Part shown: one piece after another, positions 29,178-37,085 of the stretch | Layout: each line of letters begins with the position of its first letter | Position numbering within the stretch: the first letter of the stretch is position 1 | NCBI GenBank assembly: GCA_905250005.1 | Contig: CAJNOH010000088.1 | Coordinates: forward strand, 1 to 62,152 | Reading direction: 5' to 3' | Source: Rotaria sordida | Lineage: Eukaryota | Length of the DNA: 62,152 bases | Notes under the pieces: model-generated | What the model was told of the DNA's origin: nothing | Database searches by the model: none | Seen by the model: only the letters and a program-made list of their open reading frames with translations | Program-made: the position numbers and the translations under genes

Positions 29178-32100
29178 ATGAGTAAAACAACAGCTACGAG
29201 TGATAATAAAAGTGGTTCTGGTCCCCTTTATCGAATTCCTCCTCATTATTATATTCATGTTTTGGATCAAAATACAAATGTTACACGACTTGAAATTGGT
29301 CCAAAAACATTTATTAAACAAGATAATGAAACAGTCACTATTGGACCAGAAAAGATGATTACAGTACCGTACGTGAATTTTTTTATATATAAAAAAAAAA
29401 AGAAACAACTAAATAAAGGATATAATGATTCGAATATTTTAGACCACGCCATTATTGTGTTATTGAGTCACCTGTAGTACGTAATGAAGCTGGAGAAGTT
29501 CAATTTGATAAAAATGGACAGGCAAAACTTATTCATGCTGATTTGGATATTCGTCTTGCTCAACCTGATCAAGCACCATTTCCTCTTTATCCCGGTGAAA
29601 TTCTTCGTCAGGTATAAAATTAAATTTTTTTTTCAATTAACAAAATAAAACTAATTTGATCGAATTCTTTTTGTTTTATTCAGCCTGTGACTCCATTAAA
29701 AGTTGTTCCTGCTAATTCAGCATTACGTCTAAAAGCTGTACTCGATTTTGAAGATGAAACAACACATGAACAACGTCGTGCTGGTGATGAATGGTTATTT
29801 GAAGGTCCAGCTACTTATATTCCTCGTAAAGAAGTTAGTGTTGAGGAACAAATTCGAGCTACAGTTATTGGTTCTAATCAAGCTATAAGACTTTGTGCAA
29901 AAAAAGAAATTATTGATCGTGCAGGTCAACATCGTGTTACTGGTGAAGAATGGTTAGTTAAAAAAACTGGTGCTTATTTACCTCTTGCATATGTAAGTTC
30001 AAATTTTATTCGCATATTTTAATTAAAAATTTTGTAATTTTTTAGGAAACTGTTGTTTCTGTAGAAAATGCTTATGTATTAACCGATAAAAAAGCTCTTC
30101 ATCTTCGTGCATTAAGAACTTTTACAGATAATTTTGATAAACAACGTATGAATGGTGAAGAATGGCTTGTAACTCTTGCTGACACTGAAACACATATTCT
30201 TAGTGTATATGAAGAATTAGTTAATGTTGTCAATGTAATAACATTGACTTCTCGTCAATATTGTGTTATACTTGATCCAGTTGCTGATGGAAAACCACAA
30301 TTAGGAAAAAAAGTATGTCACATATAATGGTTTTTTTATATAGGGAAAATTTAATTATTGAAATTTTTTTCTCTAGAAACTTGTCGTGGGTGAAAAATCA
30401 TTCTTTCTTCAACCTGGTGAAAAACTTGAAAATGGAATTCAAGATGTTTTTATATTAGGTGAAGATGAAGGTGTTATACTTAAATGTATTGAAGCATTTA
30501 AAGATGAACAAGCTAAGGTTAATCGAAATCCCGGTGATAGATGGATGATTCGTGGCCCAACGTAAGAGATTTATTTTTGAATAAAATTTTAAATTATTAA
30601 TATAAATTTTAGTGAATATATTCCCCCAACACAAGTTGAAGTTGTTACACGTCAAAAAGCAATTCCATTAGATGAAAATGAAGGTATATATGTTCGTGAT
30701 ATAAAAACTGGTTGTGTACGAGCAGTCATTGGTGAAACATATATGTTAACACAAGATGAAGAATTATGGCAAAAAGAATTACCTAAACAAGTTGAGGAAC
30801 TATTATCACGTGATGCATTAAGTGAACGAAATGTTCTAACACGCAATCAAACATCAGATAAATCTAAATCTCAACAACAAACAACAACGTCAAATACAAA
30901 TCTTGCTAAACGTGATAAATCAAAATTAATTACATATCGTGTTCCACATAATGCTTGTGTACAAATCTATGATTATAAAGCTAAAAACGCACGTATTATA
31001 TTTGGTCCTGAACTTGTTTTGCTTGGACCAGATGAACATTTTACATTACTTTCATTAAGTGGTAGTGTACCGAAAAAACCTAATCAAATTCAAACACTTT
31101 GTTTACTTCTTGGACCAGATTTTTTTACTGATGTTATTGTTATTGAAACAGCTGATCATGCTCGTCTTTCATTACAACTTTCATATAATTGGCATTTTCA
31201 AATATCCGATACGACTGATGAAAAAGAAGCAGCAAAACTTTTTTCAGTGCCAGATTTTGTTGGTGATGCAGCTAAAGCTATAGCTTCACGTATTCGTGGT
31301 GCTGTTGCTGGTACACAATTTGATGATTTTCATAAAAATTCAGCTCAAATTATTCGTGCATCAGTATTTGGTCTTGACGCTAATCAACATATAAGAGATA
31401 AATTTATTTTTCCACAAAATAATCTTGTTATTACATCCATTGATATACAAAGTGTTGAACCAGTTGATCAACGAACACGAGATGCACTTCAAAAGAGTGT
31501 TCAATTAGCTATTGAAGTAAGACGAACCCTATTGATTTATTTTTATAATACATATGAATGAATTATTTAGATTACAACAAATTCACAAGAAGCAGCTGCT
31601 AAACATGAAGCTTCACGTCGAGAACAAGAAGCTAAAGGATTATTAGAACGACAACGTATTAAAGATGAAGCTAATGCTGAAGAAGTTCGAAGACAACTTC
31701 TTGACTTACAAGCTTTATCAGCTGCTGTTGAATCAACAGGTCAAGCTAAAGCTGAAGCACAAAGCCGTGCTGAATCAGCTCGAATTGAAGGAGAAGCAGC
31801 TGTTGAACAAGGTAATGAATAATGATATTGTTTACAAAAAAAATTTAATTGTTTCTTTCTTTTATTTAATTAGCTGGTCTCAAAGCTAAAGCTACACAAA
31901 TTGAAGCTGAAGCTGAATTATCACGTTTACAATTAGCACGTGAAGCTGAAATAAAATTTTTACGTGAACAAAATGAATTAGAAATATCAAAGAAAAGTGA
32001 AATGTCAAGAATTGAAACTGAAAAATTTAAATTACAAGTTGAATCTATTGGTGCATCGACAATTCAATCAATTGCTACTTCAGGTCCAGATACACAAGTT

Positions 32101-32262
32101 AAACTTTTACAAGCACTTGGTCTTCAATCAATGTTGGTTACTGATGGACGTACACCTATTAATCTAATGGGTTTTGGACAAGGACTTTTAGGTGGTTTAA
32201 CTTCAACTGCAATAAAAAATTCTAAGAGTCCTAGTGGTTATCATGTTGAGGAGAATGATTAG
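29178..32262 (+). CDS. MVP: major vault protein paralog A (8 exons; there is an apparent +1 frameshift in exon 4)
   Basis: Exons are 29178..29368, 29443..29611, 29684..29992, 30045..30312, 30377..30561, 30613..31516, 31571..31811 and 31874..32262. The translation reads [45 protein letters not shown]|[11 protein letters not shown]..., continuing to ...[40 protein letters not shown]...[26 protein letters not shown]|[14 protein letters not shown]...[28 protein letters not shown]. This is colinear with metazoan MVP along its full length. All exon phases close except for one extra T in the T5 run at 30119..30123. AATAAA is at 32387..32392. Confidence 0.9.
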
Positions 32263-36700: not shown

Positions 36701-37085
36701 AATGTAATAATTTAACTTGACCATTAGCGTCCTTAATAACTTTGCCACTTCTATCACGAACAGCTGGATTTTCAATGACACAATAATGTCGAGGACTAGA
36801 TATTATTCAAAAAATAGTTTCTTTTTTTTTTTTATTAAATCAAAAGCATTTCAACATACGGAATTATTAACATTCGTTCTGGTCCGAGTAAAACTTTTTC
36901 ATGATCTTGTTTAACAAATGTTTGTGGACCAACTTCAAGTCGAGTTACATTTGTATTCTGATCAAGAACATGTAAATAATAAAAAGGATGAACTCGATAA
37001 ACTAAAATTAAAACCATAGAATCAAATACGAACAAAAAAAAAAGAAATTAAAATTCTCACCACCAGTGACTTTTGGATCTGCCAT
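33784..37085 (-). CDS. MVP: major vault protein paralog B (14 exons, about 836 aa, intact)
   Basis: Minus-strand exons are 37085..37061, 37001..36860, 36795..36512, 36445..36219, 36153..36028, 35962..35861, 35801..35679, 35620..35033, 34965..34651, 34596..34565, 34508..34435, 34381..34247, 34186..33963 and 33897..33784. All are GT..AG and the phases close, for 2511 nt of CDS. The translation is MADPKVTG|[37 protein letters not shown]...IIP|[12 protein letters not shown]...[26 protein letters not shown]...[52 protein letters not shown]...[12 protein letters not shown]|[19 protein letters not shown]...QLAIE|[11 protein letters not shown]...GPDNQ|[25 protein letters not shown]. The stop TAA is at 33786..33784. 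A minus-strand AATAAA is at 33736..33741. Confidence 0.92.

Follow-up and report, generated by a model that had tools for sequence, protein, structure and literature searches.

Nearly all animal work on vaults, particles whose function is unsettled, presumes a single shell protein, the major vault protein (MVP), as in the human and rat vault shell (4V60, 11dr_A), where MVP is canonically single copy. Two systems depart from this. Dictyostelium discoideum has two full-length paralogs in one organism, MVP alpha and MVP beta, and knock-outs of each distort vaults (Vasu and Rome 1995, cited in PMC3762200). In Trypanosoma brucei MVP1, MVP2 and MVP3 share one vault shell, as reported from affinity capture and two-colour imaging (PMC12547018). 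Here we describe a pair of MVP genes in the bdelloid rotifer Rotaria sordida, located in a window of 62,152 bp (contig CAJNOH010000088.1 of assembly GCA_905250005.1, the whole stretch of DNA that was analysed). The two genes, MVP-A and MVP-B, converge tail to tail. We put at roughly three in four the probability that they are an ancient bdelloid inverted MVP duplication, with two full-length paralogs kept by selection and transcribed convergently from outer promoters.

The Dictyostelium paralogs are the natural model for paired subunits, but they arose by an independent duplication in Amoebozoa and are described as highly similar in sequence, whereas the bdelloid proteins belong to an animal, are 33% diverged and are encoded by genes physically linked tail to tail; we know of no conserved inverted linkage of MVP alpha and beta. 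The T. brucei proteins, like the bdelloid ones, are diverged MVP paralogs, but there are three of them, in a kinetoplastid, and they are much more divergent. Heteromeric vaults are proven there and are a proposal in bdelloids, and the sections of PMC12547018 drawn on here report neither linkage nor stress co-induction. Both bdelloid proteins carry the repeat domains, shoulder, cap-helix and cap-ring in the same order as the human and rat shell protein, the difference being that a bdelloid genome has several MVP loci, each with a pair of old paralogs. What sets the bdelloid pair apart is the animal host, the tight inverted linkage, multiplication as a unit and, in data from Adineta vaga, induction by stress. 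Bdelloids offer a natural animal system for asking if heteromeric vault shells are possible and if vaults aid extreme stress tolerance.

A sequence-only reading of the window had proposed two tail-to-tail MVP paralogs about 1.5 kb apart, one with 8 and the other with 14 exons. Splice models assembled by hand from landmarks bear this out, with both exon counts recovered, outer coordinates equal to the two ATGs and a stop-to-stop distance of 1521 bp. The gene models are as follows.

29178-32262, plus strand: MVP-A gene, 8 exons, 884 aa; hand-built model, translated
29178-29368, 29443-29611, 29684-29992, 30046-30312, 30377-30561, 30613-31516, 31571-31811, 31874-32262, plus strand: MVP-A exons
37085-33784, minus strand: MVP-B gene, 14 exons, 839 aa; hand-built model, translated
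37085-37061, 37001-36860, 36795-36512, 36445-36219, 36153-36028, 35971-35861, 35801-35679, minus strand: MVP-B exons 1-7
35620-35033, 34965-34651, 34596-34565, 34508-34435, 34381-34247, 34186-33963, 33897-33784, minus strand: MVP-B exons 8-14

All introns are GT-AG (7 of 51-74 nt in MVP-A, 13 of 53-67 nt in MVP-B), and both translations run without an internal stop. The Pfam families Vault, Vault_2, Vault_3, Vault_4 and MVP_shoulder all score above their curated cut-offs in both proteins, with Vault at 218 bits in MVP-A and 214 bits in MVP-B (cut-off 27) and MVP_shoulder (PF11978) at 175 and 168 bits, respectively. Residues 9-835 of MVP-B align with residues 7-851 of human MVP (solved vault chain 11dr_A) in a single colinear alignment of 1136 bits, as expected of the full-length proteins that had been claimed. 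Identity to mollusc, brachiopod and echinoderm MVPs is 65-70% for both; between MVP-A and MVP-B it is 66.7% in protein and 72.6% in coding DNA, the moderate similarity that the earlier reading had described. By sequence-based criteria (domains, colinearity and phylogeny) both genes are MVPs, whose products would assemble into 78-mer vault particles.

Both genes are already in public annotation. MVP-A is a 100% match to a deposited R. sordida protein (P0001) with the UniRef name "Major vault protein", and three R. sordida assemblies (L006-8) are annotated with the order Sad1_UNC, 884-aa MVP, opposite-strand 839-aa gene and TPT/EamA transporter; no Pfam match is recorded for the 839-aa gene in any of the three. 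Our literature search found no paper on the MVP pair, and the only paper found that links bdelloids with vaults is PMC10809525.

The same inverted pair, which the sequence-only reading had expected in related genomes, occurs at every bdelloid locus that we fetched (five species). Each has one B-type and one A-type gene in convergent orientation, with the type of each arm called by tblastn.

L001, Didymodactylos carnosus: convergent B/A pair
L003, Adineta vaga: convergent B/A pair
L011, Rotaria sp. Silwood1: convergent B/A pair, ortholog of the window locus
L004, Rotaria sp. Silwood1: convergent B/A pair, second and far more diverged (pair 2)
L013 and L014, Rotaria socialis: convergent B/A pairs
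L015, Rotaria sordida: second convergent B/A locus

There are at least three paralogous pair loci in Rotaria. Flanking genes are common across the loci, with TPT on the B side and Sad1_UNC on the A side, and in the b-type loci L013 and L015 an Exostosin gene lies beyond Sad1_UNC (order B, A, Sad1_UNC, Exostosin); no Exostosin neighbour was found in the 62-kb window or in the A. vaga locus. Between the window and A. vaga, synteny reaches as far as a 7tm_1 receptor and a PID-domain gene. One Silwood1 haplotype (L012) seemed to lack MVP-B. We rejected this as a B-less locus: the missing gene and part of TPT coincide exactly with a 67-N scaffold gap (L012:13879-13946), and the loss is an assembly artefact, not a deletion.

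The age of the duplication was estimated from a neighbour-joining tree of 61 MVPs (844 columns, 100 bootstraps). Rotifer MVPs form a clade with 100% bootstrap within lophotrochozoan and other metazoan MVPs, and within it the bdelloid A clade and the bdelloid B clade each have 100% bootstrap and each contain Didymodactylos, Adineta and Rotaria. Because each clade holds all three genera, the A/B duplication predates the sampled bdelloid radiation, being older than the divergence of Didymodactylos, Adineta and Rotaria, in agreement with the earlier claim of an old duplication whose copies have stayed linked in inverted orientation. The branching order is identical in the two clades: Didymodactylos, then pair 2, then pair 1, which takes in the window and Adineta sequences. 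The tree and the loci together show that later duplications copied the pair whole, with the tail-to-tail layout retained each time.

Intron positions tell a similar history. The sequence-only reading had named two positions common to the genes, and both are present: a phase-2 intron in TVP|PRHYC (MVP-A intron 1, MVP-B intron 2) and a phase-0 intron after QLAIE (MVP-A intron 6, MVP-B intron 9). The total is three, a phase-1 intron (MVP-A intron 7, MVP-B intron 12; EQ|A / NQ|A) having been missed. In D. carnosus the A gene appears to be without the QLAIE intron. All 7 MVP-A and 13 MVP-B introns project to GT-AG sites in Silwood1, R. socialis, the second R. sordida locus and A. vaga; in this exon projection the R. 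socialis A model was out of frame and two other A genes were slightly faulty, and those coding sequences (CDSs) were excluded from the substitution-rate analysis below. The MVP gene of Lingula has 13 introns, of which 5-6 positions are common with MVP-B and one, which MVP-B lacks, with MVP-A, while three positions are common to MVP-A and MVP-B but not to Lingula. This comparison indicates that both bdelloid genes descend from an intron-rich gene. MVP-A dropped most of the ancestral introns and MVP-B retained 5-6 of them, and a retrocopy origin is excluded for both.

Outside the bdelloids MVP genes differ in structure and arrangement. The gene of the monogonont Brachionus calyciflorus (L017:2236-4824) is only ~66 nt longer than its CDS, that is, it has roughly one intron, and MVP intron content differs sharply within rotifers, from ~1 in this species to 7 and 13 in bdelloid A and B. 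A 488-kb contig of a eukaryote in JGI metagenome 3300071516 carries at least four head-to-tail MVP genes with no or few introns (L016:2962-17526), and its MVP clusters with Brachionus at 100% bootstrap. MVP amplification may be a wider rotifer trait, the copies on this contig being in direct orientation.

Ratios of nonsynonymous to synonymous substitution rates (dN/dS) against the Silwood1 orthologs are 0.27 for MVP-A and 0.24 for MVP-B, and for MVP-B against more distant species they are 0.11-0.20. These values show purifying selection on both genes. As would be asked of a heteromeric system, at least two full-length MVP paralogs are kept under selection (dN/dS 0.11-0.27, three genera). A B-type protein with 86% identity to MVP-B (P0121, 841 aa) is encoded by an uninterrupted open reading frame (ORF) on 2.75-kb JGI contigs from two samples. 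Because the genomic B genes carry 13 introns, P0121 must derive from a spliced transcript, and spliced B-type mRNA is thus present in metatranscriptomes.

Expression of both members of a pair has been published for A. vaga, where five MVP genes are over-expressed after radiation (Moris et al. 2024, PMC10809525). Two adjacent genes in Table S5 of that paper, FUN_011957 and FUN_011958, both encode full-length MVPs. Their mean expression is 8758 and 8625, and their log2 fold changes after desiccation and X-rays are -0.78 and -1.03 at 0 h, 2.55 and 2.48 at 2.5 h, and 0.59 and 0.34 at 8 h, respectively (PMC10809525). FUN_011960 is an Exostosin gene (PMC10809525), which fits the Rotaria order B, A, Sad1_UNC, Exostosin. 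There is good, though indirect, evidence here that a B/A pair is expressed at about 1:1 and co-induced in A. vaga, and the suggestion of a co-regulated locus made from the sequence gains support from this equal level and equal induction of adjacent MVPs. The supplements of the same paper also list a vPARP/PARP4-like vault partner (VIT, vWA and PARP domains) among the A. vaga genes, and its text cites induction of human MVP by DNA-damaging agents (PMC10809525). Both R. sordida copies are probably working vault-shell subunits.

The most original points of this analysis are a promoter block shared by the two genes and a gene-conversion hotspot within them. To define the first, five A upstream regions and five B upstream regions were aligned separately.

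28953-29118, plus strand: footprints in the MVP-A promoter, conserved in Rotaria and Adineta
28953-28965, plus strand: MVP-A footprint TTGTGCAAGAACA
28978-28997, plus strand: MVP-A footprint AGAGAGTGAAACATAGATTT
29035-29052, plus strand: MVP-A footprint GGGGCAAACTTACACAAT
29111-29118, plus strand: MVP-A footprint TATAAAAG, 60 nt 5' of the ATG
37139-37404, minus strand: MVP-B promoter
37139-37147, minus strand: TATA-like CATAAAAGG of MVP-B
37376-37404, antisense to MVP-B: conserved block, AGAGAGTGAATGAGAGAAGAACGCAAAAG in plus-strand reading

The blocks common to Rotaria and Adineta upstream of A are TTGTGCAA(G)AACA, AGAGAGTGAAACATAGATTT, a pyrimidine run, GGGGCAAACTTGCACAAT and TATAAAAG; upstream of B the common block reads CTTTTGCGTTCTTCTCTNATTCACTCTCTTC...AACCC in gene orientation. 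The window has exactly two copies of the 10-mer AGAGAGTGAA, the common core of the blocks, with one in either promoter (28978-28987 and 37376-37385), where 0.23 copies are expected and two copies were reached in 1/100 shuffles. It also occurs exactly twice, at corresponding sites, in the A. vaga locus and in the Silwood1 ortholog. The shared block is a candidate bdelloid stress-response element, concrete enough to be tested, and the motifs put forward for it are AGAGAG(T/A)(G/A)AA and TTGTGCAA/TTGCACAA. Similar cis-elements in both promoters could drive the co-induction. The flanking octamers may be C/EBP-like and the core may be IRF-type-like. The orientation of the two copies, which lie on the same strand, differs from the expectation for a simple inverted duplication of gene and promoter.

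The hotspot, of roughly 160-190 bp, covers the QLAIE intron in both genes, and its two arms are about 96% identical.

31408-31596, plus strand: conversion tract, A arm; end of exon 6, 54-nt intron 6 (31517-31570) and start of exon 7
34572-34760, minus strand: conversion tract, B arm; end of exon 9, intron 9 (34597-34650) and exon 10

Within a locus the QLAIE introns of A and B are identical at 51/54 positions in the window, 56/56 in Silwood1 and 57/57 in A. vaga, with 76% identity in R. socialis and 56%, the random level, at the second R. sordida locus. Across species the same intron has only ~60% identity when Adineta is compared with Rotaria, and 82% when R. sordida is compared with Silwood1. 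The other two introns at shared positions are unalignable between A and B (18-52% identity). Site patterns in the quartet of A and B genes from the window and A. vaga favour orthology over concerted evolution overall (487 vs 49 sites), and the ratio is reversed in the 150-nt bin at 31428-31577 (1 vs 15; Fisher P = 4e-16); with Silwood1 in place of the window the hotspot bin gives 2 vs 25. The longest perfect A=B runs are 142 nt in Silwood1 and 131 nt in A. vaga. These patterns show gene conversion between the inverted arms within a short stretch over the QLAIE intron. A further perfect A=B run of 75 nt lies away from the hotspot in A. vaga (L003, gene A ~1794-1868) and is possibly another lineage-specific conversion tract.

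The peptide encoded by the exon ends of the tract is the same in MVP-A and MVP-B and nearly the same in human MVP, and conversions at the hotspot are silent for the protein. We propose that strong constraint on the protein, here in what would be the best conserved part of MVP (the junction of shoulder and cap-helix), keeps the exon ends so alike that they can seed conversion from one inverted arm to the other, and that the intervening intron is dragged along, repeatedly and independently across lineages. Conversion would then be a by-product of the inverted layout. As in other inverted-repeat arms, for example the palindromes of sex chromosomes, intrachromosomal conversion keeps the two copies of a non-coding segment the same in any one genome although species differ in it, but the bdelloid tract is tiny (about 130-190 bp), lies inside well-diverged genes and involves the same intron in several lineages while the rest of the arms evolve independently. 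Bdelloids are an asexual lineage whose genomes are probably shaped by gene conversion, and the intron-centred hotspot is a clean, small case of inverted paralogs evolving in concert.

Outside the hotspot the two proteins have diverged in different places. There are 54 columns fixed differently between the A and B clades, spread along the protein with none in aa 601-750; the outgroup state equals A at 29 of them and B at 14. MVP-A has a derived C-terminal cap-ring (INLMGFG vs the ancestral INLFNTA, MVP-B being canonical), together with a longer N-terminus, a polar insertion at ~aa 442-470 and an extended C-terminal tail, and MVP-B is derived mostly in the repeat body. In the vault particle the waist and the cap are made by the two termini of MVP (structure cited in PMC12547018), and divergence at these ends is compatible with specialised subunits without proving them. 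MVP-A and MVP-B could be complementary shell subunits, along the lines of the subfunctionalised subunits suggested by the sequence-only reading, supplied at roughly 1:1, forming mixed shells or two kinds of half-vault by analogy with Dictyostelium MVP alpha/beta and T. brucei MVP1-3. A stronger form of this proposal, which we regard as speculative and rather unlikely, is that bdelloid vaults are obligate two-subunit particles, for example with an A half and a B half (39:39), whose supply is coupled by the shared stress-responsive promoter element, and that the expanded, radiation-induced pair loci are part of a toolkit against desiccation and DNA breakage. A 39:39 particle of this kind would agree with mRNA levels that are equal and with N- and C-termini that have diverged. 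If true, bdelloids would provide the first animal example of heteromeric vaults.

The pair might instead be linked for no functional reason, as the relic of an old inverted duplication in conserved microsynteny, with paralogs that act independently in separate homomeric vaults or in other tissues or stages. We consider this possible but doubtful. In its favour, Adineta and Rotaria have the PID, 7tm_1, TPT and Sad1_UNC genes in common no less than the pair itself, the spacer lacks conservation, its length ranging from ~0.9 to 4.1 kb among loci, and each gene has its promoter at its own outer end, the two promoters being mostly unlike. Mrazek and colleagues (2014) reportedly proposed that vaults are built during translation, each on one polysome, a mode of assembly that would favour particles of a single subunit type. 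Neutral linkage accounts less readily for the near-identical level and induction kinetics of the adjacent MVPs in the published A. vaga tables, for the retention of both members in all duplicated copies of the locus and for the conserved promoter block common to A and B. These three points do not prove selection on the linkage itself.

Several observations weigh against an ancient pair retained for joint, co-regulated use. Since the flanking genes are as syntenic as the MVP pair, the linkage may be merely inherited, and selection for it is not demonstrated. In the tree, which is a distance tree, monophyly of A and B relative to monogononts has only 45% bootstrap. The expression evidence stems from A. 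vaga and not from R. sordida, and the co-expressed pair was recognised there by consecutive FUN numbers and one flanking gene, not by sequence. As for the promoters, the two AGAGAGTGAA copies share one absolute strand, which makes the motif read in the sense direction at A but in antisense at B; the 10-mer was absent when sought in the D. carnosus locus and pair 2, and is degenerate in the b-type loci; and it was picked post hoc, with a rough chance of a few percent before cross-species conservation is counted. The spacer, having no conserved content, gives no sign of a shared 3' control element. Co-assembly of A and B into heteromeric vaults is inferred by analogy, and as the number of subunits in each half of a vault is odd (39; rat structure cited in PMC12547018), strict A-B alternation is impossible.

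We consider it very improbable that one copy, most plausibly B, is decaying or unexpressed, or that the pair is a palindrome-type assembly artefact as once reported for A. vaga. The absent Pfam record of the 839-aa R. sordida product and the seeming lack of B in the Silwood1 assembly L012 would suit such an account, but the latter is the 67-N gap described above, and the B ORF is intact over its 839 aa with all five MVP Pfam families. Its dN/dS is 0.11-0.24, 13/13 of its splice sites are kept across genera and B-type mRNA is found spliced in two metatranscriptome samples. The arms are 27% diverged in DNA and are therefore neither collapsed nor duplicated in assembly, and the pair is present in independent assemblies of five species. 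Together these results refute both accounts. A recent lineage-specific duplication with one fast-diverging copy is less credible still: the A-B synonymous divergence (dS) of only ~0.61 (NG86), near the between-genus ortholog dS, would suit it, but local conversion and a strong AT3 codon bias would be expected to give a dS this low, the differing intron sets are stable across genera, and the A and B clades each hold the three genera at 100% bootstrap. The tree and the presence of the pair in other genera refute this account.

The spacer between the convergent genes contains the following features.

32263-33783, no strand: convergent spacer, 1521 bp, with both 3' ends inside
32387-32392, plus strand: AATAAA of MVP-A
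33736-33741, minus strand: AATAAA of MVP-B (reverse complement)

The spacer is alignable with that of the Silwood1 ortholog in parts only (79-85% identity), and no similarity was found to the spacers of the other bdelloid loci. An insertion at 32993-33453 is specific to R. sordida, being missing from the Silwood1 ortholog, and includes a GC-rich, CACACC-rich block in which CACACCTGACACACCCA is repeated at 33336-33390. We considered this block as a repeated element flanking the genes and rejected it, as it is local and confined to the R. sordida-specific insertion. A vault RNA or other noncoding RNA in the spacer was likewise rejected: no Rfam family was found in the whole window at gathering score, 32200-33850 gave chance-level matches only at E<=10, and there is no conservation beyond the closest species.

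Elsewhere in the window, the 4.7-kb gap between Sad1_UNC and MVP-A contains two foldback or MITE-like inverted repeats, and four further genes were located.

25082-25685: inverted repeat 1, nested arms of 83 and 113 nt, 92-93% identical
26312-26680: inverted repeat 2, arms of 146 nt, 76% identical
38484-43750, minus strand: TPT/EamA sugar-phosphate transporter with a large intron, syntenic with the A. vaga locus
59609-60778, plus strand: rhodopsin-type 7TM receptor, single exon, syntenic with the A. vaga locus
61444-61782, plus strand: PID-domain gene, syntenic with the A. vaga locus
8728-10139, minus strand: CXXC/PHD zinc-finger gene

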